From: a virus
Reading direction: 5' to 3' (one strand)
DNA length: 64,000 bases
IMG/VR virus record: IMGVR_UViG_3300034759_000344
Span: 32,187 to 96,186 of that record
The position numbers and the translations under genes are program-made. A model generated the notes under the pieces. It was not told where the DNA came from and did not search any database. It saw only the letters and a program-made list of their open reading frames with translations. Of the stretch, positions 3,078-32,391 are shown piece after piece (within the stretch, counting starts at the first letter, position 1; every line of letters starts with the position of its first letter).

Positions 3078-4341
3078 ACAACACGAACTAGCTTACCTAA
3101 TAACTTTCAATAGAGAACTGTACCTCCTGGCCACAGAAATAGGAGGGGAACAGCTTTTTGAAAGCCACATTCTCAAAGATATCTACCGTACTGCATCTGA
3201 ATTCTATGACCGCTACGGAACATCTCCAACCTTCGAATCCTTCTTTACAGCGTTTGAAAAGCACTATAGCAAAAAGTACCAACTACTGGACATAGTTGCC
3301 TTAAAGAAAAGCTTTCAAACTCTGCGAGACAGCATACAACCGGAGTTAGCAGAATTTTATGCTGACCACTTAAAAGAGCTCTACAGAAAAAAGCAAGCAG
3401 AGGAAGTAATTCGCAGAGGAATTTCTTACATAGAAAGTGGAAACATAGACAGCTTTGTGCACGACGTAGTAAAACACCTTTCCCTGGAAAACAAGTACAT
3501 AAGATCCGGCAAACTGCTCAGCGATGCGGAAGAAATAGGTAGATATCTACAGAACATTGAGGATACCAGGATACAAACTTTGATACCCATCCTGGACAAA
3601 GTATTGGGAGGAGGGTTTGCTCCACGAGAGCTGGTAATTGTTCTGGGAGGAACTGGAGGAGGAAAGACTGCCTTCCTGATTAACCTGGGATGGGCAGCGG
3701 TTATGCAGAAAAAGAGGGTGCTTTACTACACTTTTGAAGTAGCTATGGAAAGAGTTTTGGCTCGAGCTATCTGCCACATCCTGCAAAAACCCTACCAGGA
3801 AATCATAAGAAATCCTAAAAAAACCAAACAGCTTCTTGAAGAGCACCGCATGTCTCCATACATGGACAATTTTAAAGTTATCGAAGCCCCTACTTTTACC
3901 ATGACCGTTCCCCAGCTAGAAGCCCATATTGAAATGGAAATCATCAAAGAGGGCAAACCGGATATGATAATCGTCGATTATGCAGATATCATGCTTCCTT
4001 CACAACACTACAGCGACCGCTGGCTGGAACTTGAAAACTCCTACATGTACCTGCGAAGCATTGCCCAAAAACACGATGCCGTTTTGATTACTGCTTCTCA
4101 GGTAAACCGAGAAGGAGCTCAAGCTACGAAAATAAAGAACGAACACATTAAAGGTGCATACGGTAAAACTCAAAATGCCGATGTAGTAATCGCCCTCAAC
4201 CGCTCAGCAGAAGATAAAGAAAAGGGAACGGTAAAGATAAGCATCAACAAAAACCGCAATTACGTGGCTGACCAAGTAATTGAAGTTATGGTCAATTTTG
4301 AAACGATGACTTTTTATCAGCCGGTAACCAGAAATGCTTAA
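3067..4341 (+). CDS. Replicative DNA helicase, DnaB/T4 gp41-like
   Basis: GGTGGGKT Walker A, YYTFE, IIVDYAD Walker B, TASQVNR, KNRN. Confidence 0.92.
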   Translation: MKIKQHELAYLITFNRELYLLATEIGGEQLFESHILKDIYRTASEFYDRYGTSPTFESFFTAFEKHYSKKYQLLDIVALKKSFQTLRDSIQPELAEFYADHLKELYRKKQAEEVIRRGISYIESGNIDSFVHDVVKHLSLENKYIRSGKLLSDAEEIGRYLQNIEDTRIQTLIPILDKVLGGGFAPRELVIVLGGTGGGKTAFLINLGWAAVMQKKRVLYYTFEVAMERVLARAICHILQKPYQEIIRNPKKTKQLLEEHRMSPYMDNFKVIEAPTFTMTVPQLEAHIEMEIIKEGKPDMIIVDYADIMLPSQHYSDRWLELENSYMYLRSIAQKHDAVLITASQVNREGAQATKIKNEHIKGAYGKTQNADVVIALNRSAEDKEKGTVKISINKNRNYVADQVIEVMVNFETMTFYQPVTRNA

Positions 4342-21056: not shown

Positions 21057-22538
21057 TTAAACCTTATTAAAGTATGGAGAACCGAGTTCTGCCTTGTAAG
21101 TATAGCCAGCACCAGAAATGGATACTTTTAATATTGTGGTAGCGTTGTGAGGTATCCCATAAATACACCCATTGGTAGCAAGAATGCCACCGTCCCACTT
21201 GTACAAATCGGTCAAACTTCCAAAGGTGGTTATTGAGTCATCAGATGGATTTATCTTAAGAACTGTGGTAGCGTTGCTAGGTATCCCATAAATACACCCA
21301 TTGGTAGCAAGAATGCCACCTTCCCACTTGTACGAACCGGTCAAACTTCCAAAGGTGGTTATTGAGTCATCAGATGGATTTATCTTAAGAACTGTGGTAG
21401 CGTTGAAAGGTATCCCGTAAATACATCCGTTGGTAGCAAGAATGCCACCTTCCCACTTGATTGAGTCACTACTCAAACTTCCAAAGGTGGTTATTGAGTC
21501 ATCAGATGGATTTATCTTAAGAACTGTGGTAGCGTTGTGAGGTATCCCGTAAATACATCCATTGGTAGCAAGAACGCCACCAAACCACTTGTACGAACCG
21601 GTCAAACTTCCAAAGGTGGTTATTGAGTCATCAGATGGATTTATCTTAAGAACTGTGGTAGCGTAGTGAGGTATCCCATAAATACATCCATTGGTAGCAA
21701 GAACGCCACCAAACCACTTGTACGAACCGGTCAAACTTCCAAAGGTGGTTATTGAGTCATCAGATGGATTTATCTTAAGAACTGTGGTAGCGTTGTAAGG
21801 TATCCCGTAAATACATCCATTGGTAGCAAGAATGCCACCAGCCCACTTGATTGAGTCACTACTCAAACTTCCAAAGGTGGTTATTGAGTCATCAGATGGA
21901 TTTATCTTAAGAACTGTGGTAGCGTCGTGAGGTATCCCGTAAATACATCCATTGGTAGCAAGAACGCCACCAAACCACTTGTACGAACCGGTCAAACTTC
22001 CAAAGGTGGTTATTGAGTCGGTTGTGCTAACAGTAGTTACGTGCTCAAGTCCATAAAGAGCTGGTTTCCACGTCCAGAAATAGCTTAACAGGTAACCGTT
22101 TTGCGACAACACTTGCCGACCTACTGTGGAGTCGTGGATAACGGAAATGGCAGTATCGCTTTCTCGAATAATGCCCATTGCGTTGCTACTTTCGGCGATA
22201 ATGCCCATTGCGTTGCTACTTTCGGCGATAATGCCCATTGCGTTGCTACTCTCGGCGATAATGCCCATTGCGTTGCTACTCTCGGCGATAATGCCCATTG
22301 CGTTGCTACTCTCGGCGATAATGCCCATTGCGTTGCTACTCTCGGCGATAACACTCATAGTTTGCAGCGTTTTATAAGGTTCAAAGCCTATGCCAATGAC
22401 ACCACGAAAATACCGCCCAGTAGTCTTGTAGGCATCTGTAAGGGCAAGAATGTCGCTCAGGTTGCCATATAGGCCTTCAACAAACGTATTTAATTTATAC
22501 GTTCCACCGCCACGCCTAACAAGTGTCCCTTCGCCCAT
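21057..22538 (-). CDS. Putative receptor-binding protein: 10-aa repeat stalk plus 7-repeat beta-propeller
   Basis: (AESSNAMGII)x6, then seven 43/44-aa repeats KW.GG.LATNGCIYGIP..ATTVLKINP. Confidence 0.75.
   Translation of the reverse strand: MGEGTLVRRGGGTYKLNTFVEGLYGNLSDILALTDAYKTTGRYFRGVIGIGFEPYKTLQTMSVIAESSNAMGIIAESSNAMGIIAESSNAMGIIAESSNAMGIIAESSNAMGIIAESSNAMGIIRESDTAISVIHDSTVGRQVLSQNGYLLSYFWTWKPALYGLEHVTTVSTTDSITTFGSLTGSYKWFGGVLATNGCIYGIPHDATTVLKINPSDDSITTFGSLSSDSIKWAGGILATNGCIYGIPYNATTVLKINPSDDSITTFGSLTGSYKWFGGVLATNGCIYGIPHYATTVLKINPSDDSITTFGSLTGSYKWFGGVLATNGCIYGIPHNATTVLKINPSDDSITTFGSLSSDSIKWEGGILATNGCIYGIPFNATTVLKINPSDDSITTFGSLTGSYKWEGGILATNGCIYGIPSNATTVLKINPSDDSITTFGSLTDLYKWDGGILATNGCIYGIPHNATTILKVSISGAGYTYKAELGSPYFNKV
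21135..22018 (-). repeat. Seven near-identical 129/132-bp coding repeats
   Basis: Direct repeats visible in the DNA. Confidence 0.9.
22171..22350 (-). repeat. Six tandem 30-bp coding repeats
   Basis: ATGCCCATTGCGTTGCTACT(C/T)TCGGCGATA x6, no spacers. Confidence 0.95.
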
Positions 22539-23120
22539 TTACTTCACCACCTTGGCCGTGAATGGCAAGTCTACGGTTGGCTTCTCTATAGCATAAAAGG
22601 TTATGCTATTTGTTCCAGTTACTGCCCTGTAAATGTAGCCCCATTCCTCATTTCTTATGCTGTCTGTTGCGTAGTTTCCACTCATCACGACATCGATAAT
22701 TGGCTCATCATCAGCAGTAATTCCAGTAATTGAAACTGTTTGAGAATAAGGAGCAGCCGTTCCAGACCACCCAACAGCAGATAATGTTCCAGAGTAAGTG
22801 GCTACGGTGGCAAAGTCGGAAGCACTATACCCACTATCCTGTAAATTCCCCGTAGCGTCCAAAGAAGCAAGGTTGCCAGCAGTAGTGCCAGGAACCTTGT
22901 CGGCTTTATCATTATGGGTATGTGATGCTGGTGCTGCTCCTACCTGTTCATAGGTAACCTGGTGAGGGTTATCAGTACGCAGCTCATGTGAGTTTATTTG
23001 CACCTGCAAACTGTGCAAAGTGCTGTCTATAATAGTAAAGTTGTTGTTTAATTTGTCGTCCCAGTAAGTTTCACCCTCAGAAGGAAGATATAAGTTGTAG
23101 TTAGGAGTGTAAGTAGCCAC
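22539..23120 (-). CDS. Tail fibre/adaptor protein
   Basis: YTPNYNL...NNNFTIID, NPHQVT..QVGAAP.SHTH; N-terminus paralogous to 27185-28282. Confidence 0.75.
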   Translation of the reverse strand: MATYTPNYNLYLPSEGETYWDDKLNNNFTIIDSTLHSLQVQINSHELRTDNPHQVTYEQVGAAPASHTHNDKADKVPGTTAGNLASLDATGNLQDSGYSASDFATVATYSGTLSAVGWSGTAAPYSQTVSITGITADDEPIIDVVMSGNYATDSIRNEEWGYIYRAVTGTNSITFYAIEKPTVDLPFTAKVVK

Positions 23121-23134
23121 CGACTATCCCCTCT

Positions 23135-23644
23135 TTAACTACAAGCTTGCTGGTACACTTCTTCAAAAGCTGAGTCCAGGAACTCCTCAGCATTTTGGGG
23201 AACTAAAACTCGTAGTGAAGTACCGCTGCTAGTATTTTTCAAAGACTCTATGGCTCGCAGTACGTTTATGCTTAACTGGGTAAGCAAACCCATAGTTGTG
23301 GTTAGTGTACTCTCGTTACTGATAATTGCTTGAGCAATTAGACGGGACATTACCAACTCGTTGAACAAGTTAGGTTCATCACTTTCTATTCCGCTTGCAT
23401 CAACCAATTCTCCAAATTCTTCAGATTCCAGATAATCGTGGATTTCTTTAATGTGTTTATTGAAGCCTTCATTGAGGTGGTAGATACAGAATATATTTTT
23501 GAACAAGTAGTTGAGCTGGGCTAACTCGTCTCTGTTTAGCTGAAAAGCATTAGCTTTCTCAATTAAAGAATCTATGTGCCTATCATCGCAGTTTCCCATT
23601 AACCAATAGTAGGGTTTAAGCTCTTTACTGCTAATAGTCAACAC
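23135..23644 (-). CDS. Hypothetical helical protein in the radical SAM cluster
   Basis: 169 aa, starts 4 nt after the rSAM stop. Confidence 0.55.
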   Translation of the reverse strand: MLTISSKELKPYYWLMGNCDDRHIDSLIEKANAFQLNRDELAQLNYLFKNIFCIYHLNEGFNKHIKEIHDYLESEEFGELVDASGIESDEPNLFNELVMSRLIAQAIISNESTLTTTMGLLTQLSINVLRAIESLKNTSSGTSLRVLVPQNAEEFLDSAFEEVYQQACS

Positions 23645-23647
23645 CAG

Positions 23648-24778
23648 TTACACCTCACATTTATTCCAAGGTAACTTTATACGCACTTCGTTTTGGTATC
23701 TCAAAAGCATTTTGCACACATCAGGTATGGGAATGGCTAAATCGCCCCAAAACTCAAGCTGTGCTCCCAAGCATCCTCCAGCACAGTACTCTTGGTTGAT
23801 AGGGAATTTGCACTTATGACATATCAGATTGTTATTGCGGTGGAAGTAATAAAAGAACAGAAACTTATTGCAGTCCATGTTTTCTAAATCATGAATGCTT
23901 CCAATCTTTAAATCAGGGTATATTAAGCGGTGACAAGGATAAATACTTCCATCCCAAGCTACGGTAAGCTGGGTTTGAAAACTGCAGGTCAGCCCTCTTT
24001 TTACCATCCCTGGTGTGCGGAATAGGTTAAACTGAGTTTCTCCCAGATTGATGTTTTCTTTTTGTATATAATTAATACACTTCCAGCTTTCCTCTATAAG
24101 GGTGTTTATGCGGTCGTCGTGCCAGGTTCCTCCGTTCCTCACCTGGAGCAGGAATAAATCATCTCCTACTGGATGGTCCTTGCCTCGAACCAAGCGCACG
24201 TTATCTACAAAAAACTTGAAAGTGTCAAACAAAGTATGCACAGTGGGAGCGTAGACCATAGGATGAAATCCACACAAATATCCTTCTCCATAAAGCTTAA
24301 AGAGGTTGTCGTAGTCAAGTTTTAAGTGTTTATACTCAGGGAGGCTGGGCCTCTGTTTTTCTTCCACATAAGGACCGTCAACTGAGAAGCTGAGGTTGAG
24401 CTTTCCGTACTTTTTATACAACCGCTTTATCTCTTCGGGATAGGTGGAGGCAACCCACCCGTTGTTGGGTATATTGACTAAAAATATCTGTGGGTCTTTA
24501 GCTGCTTTCTGAAGTACGTACTCAACCAAGTCTAACTGTAGAAGAGGTTCTCCACCGAACAAATCGATTTTAAACGGACGGTTTCGATACTGCTTTATCT
24601 TGGCTACAGCGGTATCTATAGTTTCTATGCTCATTTTTGGAGACTTATTACCTTGATTGTGTCGGGGCATGTAGCAGTAGCGGCAGCGTAAGTTGCACTC
24701 TGGTGACAGTATTAACTCTAAAGTCTGGAACAGTTGGTGATTTAGTAGTCTTTTAACATGCAGGAATAGTTCGTTCAA
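23648..24778 (-). CDS. Radical SAM/SPASM-domain maturase 2
   Basis: CNLRCRYC, FGGEPL, SVDG; SPASM C...DGSIYPCH...CHKC...CAGGC...C. Confidence 0.92.
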   Translation of the reverse strand: MNELFLHVKRLLNHQLFQTLELILSPECNLRCRYCYMPRHNQGNKSPKMSIETIDTAVAKIKQYRNRPFKIDLFGGEPLLQLDLVEYVLQKAAKDPQIFLVNIPNNGWVASTYPEEIKRLYKKYGKLNLSFSVDGPYVEEKQRPSLPEYKHLKLDYDNLFKLYGEGYLCGFHPMVYAPTVHTLFDTFKFFVDNVRLVRGKDHPVGDDLFLLQVRNGGTWHDDRINTLIEESWKCINYIQKENINLGETQFNLFRTPGMVKRGLTCSFQTQLTVAWDGSIYPCHRLIYPDLKIGSIHDLENMDCNKFLFFYYFHRNNNLICHKCKFPINQEYCAGGCLGAQLEFWGDLAIPIPDVCKMLLRYQNEVRIKLPWNKCEV

Positions 24779-25898
24779 AATTGCTCTGCCCCCATTCTTT
24801 GTAGTGTTTGTAGAACACTTTTACTATTTTGCAGAAATGAAAGTTTGGTGAGTAGTGAAGTCGGTTTAGATTGTGCATGTCCATAGGACATTGCCAGCAC
24901 AAAAAGGGAAATTCTTGGTACACTTCACATTCTTGCTGTTTACAGAAAGCAGCTCTAATTAGGTCGTAGTTATATTTGAAATACACATTGCGGTAAACGG
25001 CTTTGGGATCCAGGTACTCTGCATAAACGTTCCCTAATTTGAAGTAGTCCTGCTTGGTGTTGTCTGTAGACGGTCCGTGGCAGTGGTAAATGCTTCCATC
25101 TAAATCAACACATACTTGAGAATGACATGCTGAACAAACGTTGTTGGGCCTGTTGAAGTACACAAACCATCCCAGTTGTGCCTTTTCATTCTTTTCACAG
25201 TACTCTTTACAGCGGTAAAGGTCTTCATCAAGAGCTTGGGCAGCTTCTTCATCATAAACACTGTCTTTGACTAAGGTAACTGGAGACATAGGATGTTTTA
25301 GCTCTTCCCAAAAGAATTCGCAGGCTTTGTAGAAGTGCCCTTTTTTGACTTGTTCAGGACTTAAAGTGGACTTTATCATCAATTTACTGGTGAAATCTGG
25401 TATTTCTTTGGTCATTATTTCGTAATGTTCCATAACTTTATGGAAAGACCCTTCTCCACCCGCTGTCTTTCTTGCGTAGTCGTGTACTTCTTGAGGTCCA
25501 TCAAGGCTTAGCTGTATGCTTTCAATTTTGTCCCAGTGTTTTTTAACAAACTTGACATAACTTTCGGGAGTGGTAGTGGCATTGGTTGACCAGTTGGTGG
25601 TTACTGGACAGTCAGAGTAATTTTGGAATATGTAAGTAAGTACTTCTTCAATGGTATCCCATTGACATAGTGGTTCGGCACCCCACGGTATGATCTTGCA
25701 CGGAGTGTTGGGTTTAAGTATGTTGGGAAAAACCTTTCTTATCGGCTCTAAAAGCGGAATAACTTCATTGGCTTTAATTTCTATTTGTTTGTAGGTAGCA
25801 TCTCTGATATAGCAGTAAGAGCAGCGGAGATTACATTTTTTGGACATGGGAATTTCTATAACATAAATGCTTTTAAGAAATTTGGACAAGTCTACCAT
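24753..25898 (-). CDS. Radical SAM/SPASM-domain maturase 1
   Basis: CNLRCSYC, WGAEPL, SLDG; C...DGSIYHCH...C....C...CWQCP...C; ATG at 25898 after GGAGG. Confidence 0.9.
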   Translation of the reverse strand: MVDLSKFLKSIYVIEIPMSKKCNLRCSYCYIRDATYKQIEIKANEVIPLLEPIRKVFPNILKPNTPCKIIPWGAEPLCQWDTIEEVLTYIFQNYSDCPVTTNWSTNATTTPESYVKFVKKHWDKIESIQLSLDGPQEVHDYARKTAGGEGSFHKVMEHYEIMTKEIPDFTSKLMIKSTLSPEQVKKGHFYKACEFFWEELKHPMSPVTLVKDSVYDEEAAQALDEDLYRCKEYCEKNEKAQLGWFVYFNRPNNVCSACHSQVCVDLDGSIYHCHGPSTDNTKQDYFKLGNVYAEYLDPKAVYRNVYFKYNYDLIRAAFCKQQECEVYQEFPFLCWQCPMDMHNLNRLHYSPNFHFCKIVKVFYKHYKEWGQSNFERTIPAC

Positions 25899-26193
25899 AA
25901 AATGCCTCCAATACTGCCTCAAATGAAGGTAAGTAGCAAGGACCTTTTGCACTTACCGCATTGTTGGTACTGTTAACTCCATCTACACTACGTTGATGGT
26001 GGGCAGTAGAGTTCAAAGTGGAATAGCTCAAACTGTGCCCATCGTTACTGTATACTGCTTTGTTGTAGCTTGTGTAGTAAGAGCTGTTGTGAGTAGGACA
26101 GGCAGCTTCCAAGCTCTCTATAGCAGTCCTTAATTCAGAAATATGTACTTGTCTCACTTTTGTGGTATTAGTTATACTATCGGTCCAAGACAT
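25873..26193 (-). CDS. Small fibre-like protein / putative rSAM substrate B
   Basis: MSWTD...KVRQVHISELRTAI leader, then CPTH and a Y/S/N/H-rich tail ending GPCY; GGAGG SD. Confidence 0.65.
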   Translation of the reverse strand: MSWTDSITNTTKVRQVHISELRTAIESLEAACPTHNSSYYTSYNKAVYSNDGHSLSYSTLNSTAHHQRSVDGVNSTNNAVSAKGPCYLPSFEAVLEAFYGRLVQIS

Positions 26194-26205
26194 GATTGCC
26201 TCCGT

Positions 26206-26592
26206 TTATACGTAGTGCACGCAGTTGCCACTACCCAAAGCATAGTTGTATTTAGCAGTTCCGTTTTCGCTTGAGTCGTGGCCGCTGTAGTTGGATCCGT
26301 AATCAATACTGTGAGCAGTTCCGTAGTTAGAACAGTAACCGTCGTAGCTTGAGTTATAGGAGCGTACGGTAGTATGGTGAGTACCACAGCCAACAGTTAG
26401 CGGGGTTCCATCAACAGCAGAACGCAGGTCATTTATATGAGAAGCAAGAATTTTACTTTGCTCAGCAGTAATATTTATGGAAAGCTGGGAATACCCACGC
26501 TCACTACGCTCTGTGTTGAGCCTGGATACTATTTCGTCAATATGTATCTTTCTGATTTTAATATTGGTTAAATTAGTATCTGTCCAAGCCAT
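26206..26592 (-). CDS. Small fibre-like protein / putative rSAM substrate A
   Basis: MAWTD...KIRKIHIDEI...KILASHINDLRSAV leader, then CGTH and a Y/S/N/G/H-rich tail ending NCVHYV. Confidence 0.65.
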   Translation of the reverse strand: MAWTDTNLTNIKIRKIHIDEIVSRLNTERSERGYSQLSINITAEQSKILASHINDLRSAVDGTPLTVGCGTHHTTVRSYNSSYDGYCSNYGTAHSIDYGSNYSGHDSSENGTAKYNYALGSGNCVHYV

Positions 26593-26595
26593 GGG

Positions 26596-26937
26596 TTAGT
26601 GGATTTGCCTAATGACAATATCCAAATCACAAACTGGAATACCGAAGGTGAGGTTTATTTGGTCCAATAAGTAACCAGGTTCTGTGTTTCCTATAGTGTA
26701 AAAGCACTTGGTGTTGTAGTAGAGGTTCATCTCAATAGGCTTTTTAGCCACTTCGTTCAGCTGACTGGCAATGCGTACAGCATCTTCAGGAGACACGTTA
26801 ATGCGTATGTGCATTACATTTATTAAAGATCCGTCGCTGGCAATTTCTTTGTTCTGCATCATGGAAAGAAACCCTACTTCCTCAGCCAAAACTGTCTCAG
26901 TATTTTCTCTATCTATGATTTCTATGGAATAGCCCAT
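26596..26937 (-). CDS. Hypothetical protein
   Basis: 113 aa, GGAGGT SD. Confidence 0.55.
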   Translation of the reverse strand: MGYSIEIIDRENTETVLAEEVGFLSMMQNKEIASDGSLINVMHIRINVSPEDAVRIASQLNEVAKKPIEMNLYYNTKCFYTIGNTEPGYLLDQINLTFGIPVCDLDIVIRQIH

Positions 26938-26939
26938 AG

Positions 26940-27188
26940 TTACACCTCCATGGGAATCAAATACATTTCAGAGAGTTTATGGCAGGTATAGATACTTACG
27001 GTCTTCAAGTTAATGAAGTATGTGTTGTTTTCCCACTCTACTTCCAGGTTGTATCCAGGGTTTACGTAGTTCATAATTGACTGCAGTACTGGAAAAGATC
27101 CTCTGATGCGAATTCTGTTTCCTGTAGGCAGCTCATCTACCCCGACATAATCTACTTCAAACTCTCTTCCATTTATTAAAATATTCAT
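26940..27188 (-). CDS. Hypothetical protein
   Basis: 82 aa, ATGA-coupled to the fibre gene. Confidence 0.55.
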   Translation of the reverse strand: MNILINGREFEVDYVGVDELPTGNRIRIRGSFPVLQSIMNYVNPGYNLEVEWENNTYFINLKTVSIYTCHKLSEMYLIPMEV

Positions 27189-28282
27189 CTTATCAACACC
27201 TTTATTTTCCTAACTTCATGCCGTCCTACACTTTCCATAGCTTTAGCTACCACTTCTTGGTTGCGTTTGGCTTTTTTCAGCATCCCGTCTTTTCCTACAG
27301 TAAGTGGGTCTCCAGGTTTCACGCCTTTTTTACCACCATCCACTTTGGCATACACTTGACCTACTAAAGCTAAAGGAACTTTCTTGTGTTTTTGGTATTC
27401 TTCTTCCCAGTTATGGGTCATACCTAAAAGCAGTCCTGGATGATAAGAAACTATACCTGCAAAGCTACCTCCATTTACTGCTTTCATAACCCTACCGTCA
27501 TCTGTGAACACCATTACTGTACCTTCTTCAGGCAGCCTAGGTTCTACAGTAATAAATCCTTCAGCAAGGTCGGAATTGTACACGGCTCCCACTAATCCGT
27601 AATCATTGACATAAGCTCTGGTAGTTCCTCCAGTCTGGAAATAGATAGTTTGCCCTGAAGGAACATTTATGCCAGTAGCTGAAGTGTTGCTTTTCCATAC
27701 AAAGTCCTCAGCATGTTTATTATCTACAGTATCGGCATTGTCAGCCTGCTCTACACTTCCATCACTATCTGGGTCATAGGTAGCTTTGGTCATCTCTCCA
27801 GCTACAGTGTAATTACTGCCATCAGTTGAAAACTCAAGCAGGGAGCCGTTAACCCTGAAGTGGATGTTATCTACGGTATCTGAATTGTCAGCTTGTTCTA
27901 CGCTTCCATCATCATCAGGGTCATAAGCGGATTTAGTCATTTCCCCAGCTACAATGTAGTTGCGACCGTCAGTCGAAAATTCCAGCAGTCCAGCGCTGAC
28001 TCTTAGGTGGACGTTGTCCACGGTATCAGCATTGGCAGCCTGAGGTACCTGACCGTAGATATCGCTACCTACATGCTGGTGCTGCGCAGGAGCAGCACCA
28101 GTTTGGTCATAGGTGACTTGATGGGGATTGTTAGTGTCATTTTTGTGAGCATTTAACAATCCAGTTAAGGAAGCTATAAGACTGTCTATAGTTTCCAAAT
28201 TCCCGTTTATCTCATCGTGCCAGTTTACGTCTCCTGGTGCTGGTAAAGCAAAATTGTAGTTCGGAGTGTAGCTGTTAGCCAT
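27185..28282 (-). CDS. Tail fibre protein with C-terminal intramolecular chaperone (peptidase G2/IMC-like)
   Basis: NPHQVT, NADTVD, YDPD.DG.V..AD repeats; YNSDLAEGF...GIVS..PG...VPLALVGQVYAKV...PGD.L. Confidence 0.8.
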   Translation of the reverse strand: MANSYTPNYNFALPAPGDVNWHDEINGNLETIDSLIASLTGLLNAHKNDTNNPHQVTYDQTGAAPAQHQHVGSDIYGQVPQAANADTVDNVHLRVSAGLLEFSTDGRNYIVAGEMTKSAYDPDDDGSVEQADNSDTVDNIHFRVNGSLLEFSTDGSNYTVAGEMTKATYDPDSDGSVEQADNADTVDNKHAEDFVWKSNTSATGINVPSGQTIYFQTGGTTRAYVNDYGLVGAVYNSDLAEGFITVEPRLPEEGTVMVFTDDGRVMKAVNGGSFAGIVSYHPGLLLGMTHNWEEEYQKHKKVPLALVGQVYAKVDGGKKGVKPGDPLTVGKDGMLKKAKRNQEVVAKAMESVGRHEVRKIKVLIR

Positions 28283-31878: not shown

Positions 31879-32391
31879 TTAGAAGTTGAATACGATGTAG
31901 AATACTTCGTACTGATTGGGCTGAATGTGCAGCGGTTCTCGATTAGACACCCACTCAAGGTATCCCGTAAATTCCACTTCAGATGGAAGCAGTAAGGTTT
32001 TTCCTTCATTGCCTGCAGTTGGTACCAACTTGCTGTATAGTCCTACCTGACGGAAAGTAACATCGTCACTGATATCGGTATCAGTAATAGTTGCTTTAAT
32101 GAGTATTGTGGTCACCAGGTTGTTGCGAGCAAATTCTTCGGATACTGCTTTATAAGTTACTCCTTGTACTATGTACTCGCCTGTAGTATCTTCTACCACA
32201 AAGGTTTTAACGTCTGCTTTTTTAAAGATTACTGGTTCTTCTACGTCTAAAATATCTGGACTTACTATAGGTGGATTATTTTCATCTGGCCAGGGAGTGG
32301 TTCTACCTATACAAATCCATAAATCTCCAGATATGAAATCCATAGCTCTTGATATGTTTCCAATTACAGGAATGGCAATACTATTTGGCAT
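31879..32391 (-). CDS. Baseplate wedge protein
   Basis: IGRTTPWPDENNPP, FRQVGL. Confidence 0.7.
   Translation of the reverse strand: MPNSIAIPVIGNISRAMDFISGDLWICIGRTTPWPDENNPPIVSPDILDVEEPVIFKKADVKTFVVEDTTGEYIVQGVTYKAVSEEFARNNLVTTILIKATITDTDISDDVTFRQVGLYSKLVPTAGNEGKTLLLPSEVEFTGYLEWVSNREPLHIQPNQYEVFYIVFNF

Follow-up and report, generated by a model that had tools for sequence, protein, structure and literature searches.

Organization of the gene cluster

The window analysed here, a stretch of 64,000 nucleotides (nt) covering positions 32,187 to 96,186 of IMG/VR virus record IMGVR_UViG_3300034759_000344, contains a cassette in which the genes for a pair of enzymes, A and B, of the radical S-adenosylmethionine (rSAM) type adjoin those of two paralogous small repeat proteins between two tail-fibre genes. 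The small proteins carry a 'WTD...HIxELR' repeat and are referred to as WTD proteins. The record is linear, 96 kb long, and estimated by CheckV to be 63% complete. An earlier note, made from the DNA alone, had described a nine-gene cluster on one strand, and all nine open reading frames (ORFs) were found end to end on the minus strand at 22539-28282 (Table 1). We propose that the cassette encodes a phage-borne system for post-translational maturation of whole proteins within a late tail-fibre operon, similar in kind to the systems behind RiPPs (peptides synthesized ribosomally and modified post-translationally), a reading to which we give a probability of about 0.6.

The genes are tightly packed. 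From the 365-residue to the 193-residue fibre gene the junctions comprise one 4-nt overlap, gaps of 2, 3, 12, 3 and 14 nt, and two 26-nt overlaps, so that the packing is as previously described, except that not every junction is below 15 nt. The 26-nt overlaps are those of the 106-residue protein gene with enzyme A (start at ATG 25898) and of enzyme A with enzyme B. The full ORF of enzyme A (24753-25952) has 399 residues; because a GGAGG sequence is located 6 nt before ATG 25898, this codon is most likely the start, giving a protein of 381 residues. The gene of the 106-residue protein has a Shine-Dalgarno sequence of the same type, also GGAGG at 6 nt from the ATG. The gene block reads as one late operon, because promoter-like and terminator-like sites between 20400 and 32500 do not exceed shuffled expectation, being in fact fewer than in shuffled sequences. 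None of the cassette genes encodes a signal peptide, a protease or an exporter. The reported lack of an exporter, leader peptidase and sulfatase extends to the 96-kb record at its estimated 63% completeness, in which no C39 peptidase, sulfatase or ABC transporter was found above cut-off.

Table 1. Genes of the cassette and its flanking fibres in the window, and sister-clade WTD proteins on other contigs (aa, amino acids)
Feature	Position	Strand	Evidence
Tail-fibre protein, 365 aa	27185..28282	-	ORF; phrog_8147 tail fibre, 1e-5
82-aa protein, function unassigned	26940..27188	-	ORF; 4-nt ATGA overlap with fibre gene
113-aa protein, function unassigned	26596..26937	-	ORF; matches C-terminal half of 204-aa protein of contig L037
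WTD-long repeat protein, 128 aa, putative rSAM substrate	26206..26592	-	ORF, motif alignment
WTD-short repeat protein, 106 aa, putative rSAM substrate	25873..26193	-	ORF, motif alignment
Radical-SAM enzyme A (rSAM1), 381 aa from ATG 25898	24753..25898	-	PF04055, CNLRCSYC
Radical-SAM/SPASM enzyme B (rSAM2), 376 aa	23648..24778	-	PF04055, TIGR04085, CNLRCRYC
169-aa protein (p169), probable helper	23135..23644	-	ORF; position directly after enzyme B
Tail-fibre protein, 193 aa	22539..23120	-	phrog_8147, phrog_31688
Sister-clade WTD/Cys-repeat proteins	L055 8105-8848; L069 7484-8104; L076 3985-4548; L072 13008-14618; L082 7083-9131		WTD motifs + CTCNCNY(S)

WTD proteins

Alignment of the WTD proteins distinguishes two forms, a long form with two copies and a short form with one copy of the motif W-[ST]-x...I-x-x-x-H-[IV]-x-E-[LI]-[RK], and the window fits the usual pair of one long (128 residues) and one short (106 residues) protein. 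In the 128-residue protein, two WTD/HIxE(L/I)R motifs (residues 1-65) are followed by a junction cysteine (Cys69), a Tyr/Ser/Asn/His/Gly tract and the conserved end NYALGSGNC. The 106-residue protein has one WTD motif, a junction Cys (in ACPTH), a Tyr/Ser/Asn/His tract, a conserved KGPC(Y/F) and a variable tail of 13-19 residues. The N-terminal domain is thus composed of one or two repeats of about 33 residues, and the junction Cys at the end of the motif region is at least 90% conserved among 90 sequences. The two proteins of the window have only 2-3 Cys each. No Pfam domain was found in the WTD proteins.

The N-terminal part is predicted to be a folded domain and not merely a disposable leader. 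An AF2 model of the 128-residue protein, built with the alignment of 90 sequences, has pLDDT values of 79-95 for residues 1-65 and below 55 for the remainder; a model from the single sequence was poor (pLDDT 43). Fold searches with the alignment-based model returned nothing at E <= 0.001 against PDB and BFVD using Foldseek, and using VIA-align only generic helical matches, none of them significant (best Z 5.1).

The tracts vary much more than the N-terminal domains. Orthologues of the 128-residue protein in the related contigs L037, L039 and L043 have 45-59% identity in the N-terminal domain and 18-44% in the tract, and for both WTD forms of this close clade the values are 45-69% and 18-44%, respectively, with tract lengths of 32-92 residues; both forms keep their endings, NYALGSGNC in the long and KGPC(Y/F) in the short one. 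Over the entire family the tracts consist largely of Asp (14.7%), Ser (11.9%), Asn (10.1%), Tyr (9.9%), Thr (9.6%), Gly (8.1%) and His (4.6%), and are acidic or neutral, Lys and Arg together making up only 3.4%. They follow the pattern [Tyr/His]-[Asp/Asn]-[Ser/Thr/Gly]-[Ser/Thr/Gly] with a period of four residues, as seen from the excess over shuffled sequences of aromatic residues at i and i+4 (z = 11.6) and of Ser/Thr at i+2 and i+3 (z = 20.1 at lag 4), and His shows an eight-residue rhythm. Tyr and His residues spaced by four can be seen in the tract of the 128-residue protein. The anatomy of a recognition domain with a variable core fits a substrate role, albeit not quite as first described: a conserved N-terminal domain and a variable tract are present, but the N-terminal part is predicted to be folded and is a widespread repeat (see below), not a mere leader.

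Radical SAM enzymes

Both enzymes fall within the radical SAM superfamily (PF04055; 42.5 bits for enzyme A and 54.7 bits for enzyme B, cut-off 29.5) and carry a CxxxCxxC motif (Table 1), the cysteines of which are invariant in the family alignments. In the earlier note, SPASM cysteines had been assigned to both; this holds for enzyme B, but only three auxiliary Cys are conserved in enzyme A. Enzyme B matches the SPASM model TIGR04085 with 37.3 bits (cut-off 27) and PF13186 with 20.8 bits, just under the cut-off of 21.5. Its C28/C32/C35 and its SPASM residues C265, C282, C320, C323, C332, C336 and C355 are invariant among 19 broad relatives, and the seven SPASM Cys also among 12 close relatives. 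Enzyme B is therefore the only one of the two with the complete set of seven Cys for two auxiliary 4Fe-4S clusters. No SPASM model matches enzyme A, in which C40/C44/C47 and C273/C291/C355 (numbering of the 399-residue ORF) are kept across 19 relatives; additional Cys are present in the clade of the window, but these are not conserved family-wide. Since only three Cys outside the CxxxCxxC cluster are kept, enzyme A resembles a one-cluster 'twitch' enzyme rather than a canonical SPASM enzyme, and its relatives weakly match a twitch-domain model (NF033640, 34.8 bits versus a cut-off of 170). The previously noted GAEP in place of GGEP occurs in enzyme A as WGAEP, which agrees with the family norm WG[ATS]EP; enzyme B has GGEP. 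Enzyme A also matches phrog_1802 (1.8e-29).

The best NCBIfam matches of both enzymes are peptide or protein maturases (PapB, CcpM, Nif11, anSME, DynA, HxsB, SCIFF and cyclophane synthases), in agreement with the type originally assigned to them. The scores of these named families are about 100 bits or less, against curated cut-offs of 300-855 bits, none of which is reached. As all best matches are maturases and yet lie far under the cut-offs, both enzymes belong to the peptide/protein-maturase branch, in no named family. PADLOC gave only weak viperin-type rSAM matches for the cassette proteins.

In L019, L021, L023 and L028 (9383-11200) enzyme B has 605 residues, with a mini-intein of about 165 residues (CFPAG...VHN, before C) inside the CxxxCxxC motif, and splicing of this intein would restore CNLNCDYC. 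In L009 (5669-6286 and 7764-8447) and L010 (7134-7751 and 9229-9912), genes resembling GIY-YIG-type homing endonucleases flank enzyme A, and a 56-residue remnant of a second enzyme-A N-terminus is located upstream.

Distribution and conservation of the cassette

Uniform detection with hidden Markov models over 42 related loci found enzymes A and B both present and adjacent in 33 loci. At least one WTD protein lies beside the enzymes in 28 of the 42 loci, and two WTD proteins in 24; the loci without a WTD protein are mostly cut by contig ends or frame-broken. A conserved helical protein of 154-193 residues, called C2, occurs in 33/42 loci. The cassette can thus be defined by adjacent enzymes A and B, one or two WTD proteins in which a low-complexity tract follows a junction Cys, and, after enzyme B, a protein of about 150-190 residues. 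All of these elements are present in the window, its helper element being a positional equivalent only.

The close relatives of enzyme B (42-62% identity) were found in metagenomes only. As far as their length allows, seven contigs (L037-L043) show synteny with the window, in the order 1189-residue protein, fibre, small gene, WTD-long, WTD-short, enzyme A, enzyme B, p169 and fibre. A wider clade, with 23-32% identity in enzyme B, comprises 33 viral contigs, of which some belong to records 160-220 kb long, and two metagenome loci (L044 and L045). Here a relative of enzyme A almost always adjoins enzyme B, one or two genes with WTD motifs and tracts lie beside them, and C2 follows the pair. A different arrangement was observed in L031 (5913-11778), where the order is enzyme A, a C2 copy, two WTD proteins of 390 and 368 residues with aromatic-free 8/16-residue repeats, enzyme B and a second C2 copy, each enzyme thus having its own helper copy.

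As a cellular control, the 80 nearest rSAM relatives (at most 26% identity) in 185,579 species-representative prokaryote genomes were inspected, and no WTD or C2 protein was found at any of these 80 loci. The contig scan with the alignment of the close enzymes retrieved only such distant cellular rSAMs. The neighbourhood survey proposed with the original description was thus positive, in that WTD proteins co-occur with the tandem rSAM pair in uncultivated phage contigs and not at the cellular loci. Among cultured phages, enzyme B matches only distant rSAMs of Campylobacter, Erwinia and Fusobacterium phages, in other contexts, and an enzyme B from the wider clade gave no match. The nearest of these relatives, with 24% identity, is encoded by Campylobacter phage CP220 (L036, 6983-8086); it is set among sugar-nucleotide and replication genes without a WTD-type neighbour, and represents a different system.

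The expected co-occurrence with tail modules is seen in the window, in the close clade and in several distant loci, but most neighbours in the distant loci carry no annotation. Examples of a tail context elsewhere are L012, where the upstream gene of 1410 residues encodes a tape measure protein, L003, where the pair lies just before the tail sheath gene, and L021, with a tail protein upstream. The tail-module setting can therefore be considered secure for the window and the close clade, and for only some of the distant loci. Five loci of the wider clade add a lectin-like protein, and in 11 loci of this clade (cluster C4; e.g. L005 12982-13980 and L025 7789-9189) a GT1 glycosyltransferase gene directly follows the helper gene, which hints that the tracts may also be glycosylated.

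WTD repeats outside the cassette

A profile of the WTD motif matched 3665 protein clusters at E <= 1e-3 among 1.84 billion representatives. These include many small proteins with an N-terminal motif, and many large bacterial secreted proteins with signal peptides, in which three tandem motifs are located C-terminally or before a Cys-rich domain, together with Laminin_G_3, FG-GAP or Rhs-type regions. The repeat of about 33 residues ('SWTDPxITxxxTxIRxxHIxELR'; examples P0138, P0149, P0169, P0174, P0195, P0209 and P0241) has no Pfam family. Because it is widespread in bacterial secreted proteins that have no tract, the WTD repeat is best regarded as a general structural module and not a dedicated rSAM leader.

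The complete module, with two WTD motifs, a junction Cys and a tetrad tract, was also encountered at the C-terminus of a 960-residue protein with galactose-binding-like domains. The contig of this fused protein is 10,747 nt long, and so is a contig with a relative of enzyme B. Relatives of the N-terminal part of the fused protein occur on 17 viral contigs, without the WTD/rSAM module save for one weak exception, and a word-indexed search for longer fused forms gave 4 matches only.

A sister clade of distant metagenome loci has 2-3 rSAM genes, small helical proteins, and a protein in which 2-3 WTD motifs are combined with CTCNCNY(S) repeats (Table 1). Several of its contigs are 125-240 kb in length, and at least one has a phage-type lysozyme. 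Two of the WTD/Cys-repeat proteins have 536 and 682 residues, with extra domains; that of L072 ends in a Hint/intein-like domain. The occurrence of the WTD motif beside rSAM enzymes across different core types strengthens the view that the WTD proteins are substrates.

Neighbouring and accessory genes

The two fibre genes form the boundaries of the cassette. The upstream fibre (365 residues) has 53% identity to its syntenic counterpart in L043 (5540-6790), and its C-terminus weakly matches Phage_cement and Peptidase_G2. The counterpart of the downstream fibre (193 residues) is a 425-residue fibre in L043 (10799-12076). Both fibres of the window match the tail-fibre family phrog_8147, and their N-terminal 70 or so residues are common, with 54% identity. 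Upstream of the block, genes are found for baseplate wedge and baseplate proteins and for a 1189-residue protein of phrog_877. On the other side, a gene for a 493-residue repeat protein (21057-22538) abuts the 193-residue fibre gene without a gap; at its N-terminus the product has a series of almost identical 'SNAMGIIAES' units, and it also contains seven blades of about 45 residues that hardly differ from one another.

The genes for the 82- and 113-residue proteins (26596-27188) correspond to two halves of one 204-residue gene in L037 (249-863), the former by a weak match (residues 4-74, E 0.011) and the latter over residues 99-176 (E 2e-6), and L039 and L043 have a single gene of about 105 residues in their place. 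Both genes are restricted to the close clade and absent from the wider cassette. The 82-residue protein has no match in Pfam, PHROG, NCBIfam or PADLOC, and no family match was found for the 113-residue protein.

The p169 protein has 42-51% identity to its counterparts in L037 and L039-L042, no family match, and nothing usable from the protein atlas. It takes the position that C2 has after the rSAM pair in the wider cassette, and by this position is probably a helper protein. Homology of p169 to the C2 helper was considered and rejected.

Proposed mechanism and alternative explanations

The gene linkage and protein anatomy described above make it likely that enzymes A and B modify both WTD proteins. 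We propose that the 128- and 106-residue paralogues, with their folded WTD domain, junction Cys and hypervariable tract, are the substrates, and that enzyme A, with one twitch-like auxiliary site, and enzyme B, with a two-cluster SPASM domain, act on the tract, probably assisted by the 169-residue protein in the way that HxsD assists HxsC in the HXS system discussed below. Through hydrogen abstraction the enzymes would modify the tract covalently, most likely with repeated cross-links between side chains and a link at the junction Cys.

The cross-link chemistry is only weakly indicated. Tyr or His at every fourth residue with Ser or Thr two positions on suggests cyclophane-type links, and the junction Cys together with the PapB-like best matches suggests a thioether. 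The aromatic-free tracts of L006 and L030/L031 would argue for Asp/Asn or Ser/Thr as common targets, and because of these tracts an aromatic cross-link cannot be the universal chemistry.

With neither a signal peptide nor a protease or exporter in the cassette, the products should remain whole proteins. On balance we lean towards their being part of the virion, because of the recurring position in tail modules, the same lack of exporter, protease and signal peptide, and the fused 960-residue form. Most likely they would sit on the tail fibres or close to them and form a stiffened surface element that evolves quickly. Its covalent bonds would be made in the cytoplasm, a reducing compartment that does not permit disulfides. 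A composition rich in Tyr, Ser, Asp and Asn suits binding sites such as antibody loops. More tentatively, and with considerable doubt, an rSAM-stapled, fast-evolving tract on a tail-associated protein could serve as a rigid, protease-resistant element for host recognition or adhesion.

Several observations weigh against maturation of virion-borne WTD proteins as proposed here. The four-residue rhythm is weak in the two tracts of the window itself (z of about 2.2, the observed value being reached in 18/500 shuffles), and the tracts of L006 and L030/L031 are nearly without Tyr or His. The WTD repeat occurs in bacterial secreted proteins that have no tract and nothing that points to an rSAM link. 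No homology of p169 to C2 could be detected (hhalign probability 9%), and a GT1 glycosyltransferase, present in the 11 distant loci, was not found in the record of the window. No cassette was found in cultured phages (INPHARED) by DNA searches with the region or by protein searches, and most neighbours in the distant loci are blank for PHROG and Pfam. With respect to the virion part in particular, the characterised analogue HXS yields a non-structural effector.

The last point leads to an explanation in which the WTD proteins, although modified by the rSAM pair, act as non-virion effectors, freed at lysis or remaining intracellular. Possible roles would be those of a bacteriocin-like or signalling product, superinfection exclusion following an HXS-like logic, or counter-defence. 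The lack of an exporter fits, since a phage that lyses its host can do without one, and so do the predicted disorder of the tract and the absence of a match of any cassette protein to a virion-protein family in Pfam or PHROG. We nevertheless consider such effectors rather unlikely, as the cassette is embedded among the tail or fibre genes of phages of unrelated types, its genes overlap and it has no separate promoter, and the fused 960-residue form puts the module on a large carbohydrate-binding-like protein. Moreover, the acidic or neutral tracts are unlike the basic, DNA-binding HxsA repeats, and a peptidoglycan-binding domain or signal peptide is lacking.

Since the enzymes are located between two fibre genes, their targets might instead be the flanking fibres of 365 and 193 residues or another structural protein, with the WTD proteins as accessories or adaptors, a role in line with the wide occurrence of the WTD repeat as a structural module without rSAM context. 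However, fibres and neighbours change across the distant loci, whereas the WTD pair remains with the two enzymes and C2, and the fibres contain no repeat tract or Cys pattern that recurs with the enzymes, which makes this explanation improbable. The least credible possibility is a substrate other than a protein, for instance a nucleotide, cofactor or lipid, in an auxiliary metabolic role with incidental small-protein neighbours: every one of the best matches is to a peptide or protein maturase with SPASM, and the linkage to repeat proteins holds over three clades with different core types. It draws on the fact that many phages carry rSAM genes for other ends (QueE-like, viperin-like), with weak matches of this kind here, and on the distant relative in a non-tail context in Campylobacter phages.

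Implications

To our knowledge, the rSAM maturases studied so far are bacterial and act on peptide natural products or in cofactor and enzyme maturation, and lately on the HXS defence effector. Covalent virion chemistry as such is represented by the isopeptide chainmail of the HK97 capsid, which is autocatalytic. If phages routinely treat proteins of their own tail modules in the proposed manner, an enzymatic, radical-based post-translational step would join virion assembly. RiPP enzymology would gain two enzyme clades not yet characterised and a new family of precursors that join a WTD domain to tetrad tracts, and there would be a testable tie between hypervariable tracts and host recognition. 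Should the stapling reading hold, it would be the first radical cross-link installed by an enzyme in a virion protein, and hypervariable stapled binders would have a natural source. The cassette is compact, with five genes, or three in its minimal form.

Comparison with known systems

By analogy in its four-part architecture, the closest characterised system is HXS (HxsA/B/C/D; TIGR03978, TIGR03977), a bacterial anti-phage system of which 99.7% is found in Pseudomonadota (Li et al., Nat Commun 2026, PMC13128918). Its HxsA protein combines a peptidoglycan-binding domain with basic, DNA-binding repeats, and is processed and modified (+8 Da) as a whole protein, the product being exported to the periplasm; HxsD helps HxsC (PMC13128918). 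HXS and the cassette have in common two adjacent rSAM enzymes, one with and one without a full SPASM domain, and a small partner with a repeat protein of about 100-200 residues ([His]-x-[Ser]-type) whose maturation affects, or in the cassette would affect, the protein as a whole; both systems have to do with phage infection. The cassette differs in being phage-encoded within a tail operon, in having two putative substrates, and in the nature of these, with a WTD N-terminal domain, non-basic tracts rich in Tyr, Asp and Asn, and no peptidoglycan-binding domain. The enzymes fall outside the HXS families, with HxsB scores of 53.5 and 58.6 bits (cut-off 370) and, for relatives, HxsC scores of about 23-27 bits.

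Triceptide systems (XyeB, GrrM/OscB, FxsB, YhhB, HaaB and HtkB; e.g. PMC11499958) resemble the cassette in their repeated aromatic-x-x motifs, with Tyr/His at i and Ser/Thr at i+2, and in having SPASM maturases from the same broad branch. However, they consist of one enzyme acting on short peptides, usually with a protease or exporter, and some cassette tracts are without aromatic residues. The three-residue cyclophane synthase models gave 21-58 bits, against cut-offs of 310-450: YhhB 57.7 (A) and 36.1 (B), GrrM/OscB 48.7 (A), FxsB 32.1 (A), and XyeB 20.8 bits for the relative of enzyme B in L012.

With the thioether systems PapB/PapA (the ranthipeptide freyrasin) and SCIFF/CteB, the likeness lies in PapB being the top NCBIfam match of both enzymes (NF047865; 101.7 bits for A and 97.2 bits for B, far from the cut-off of 340) and in the repeated Cys-x3-Asp motifs of its substrate, spaced by four residues like the cassette tracts, which for their part combine a conserved junction Cys with Asp/Asn-rich sequence. 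The proteins of the window have only the few Cys mentioned above, however, and a secreted-peptide logic is not evident. No RiPP recognition element (RRE) domain was found in the cassette. The CXXX-repeat system (TIGR04115) is approached by the sister clade, with its WTD motifs and CTCNCNY(S) repeats beside 2-3 rSAM genes, but the window has Tyr/His at every fourth position where such systems have Cys, and its enzymes score 47.7 and 47.3 bits against a cut-off of 350.

A sulfatase-maturation (anSME) system was considered and rejected: there is no sulfatase in the record, no C/S-x-P-x-R motif in the small proteins, and the scores are low (TIGR03942; 67.1 and 51.6 bits versus 349). The Cys-repeat version is carried by SPN3US-like Erwinia phages. 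A looser analogue is found in Erwinia phage phiEaH2 (gp083-gp088), in which a virion structural protein is followed by three small genes with Cys repeats and by two rSAM genes, but the leaders are without the W-T-D signature. In this region (L197, 3111-7311) the small genes at 3111-3494, 3437-3904 and 3937-4155 are unannotated or mis-annotated and encode a leader with Cys-Ser-Gly repeats; they are followed by a 295-residue protein and the two rSAM genes.

We found no paper on a phage rSAM/RiPP tail system. Radical SAM maturation of repeat peptides and proteins is the known part of the cassette, and the new part comprises the WTD/tetrad precursor family, the two uncharacterised enzyme clades and the setting in a virus tail operon.

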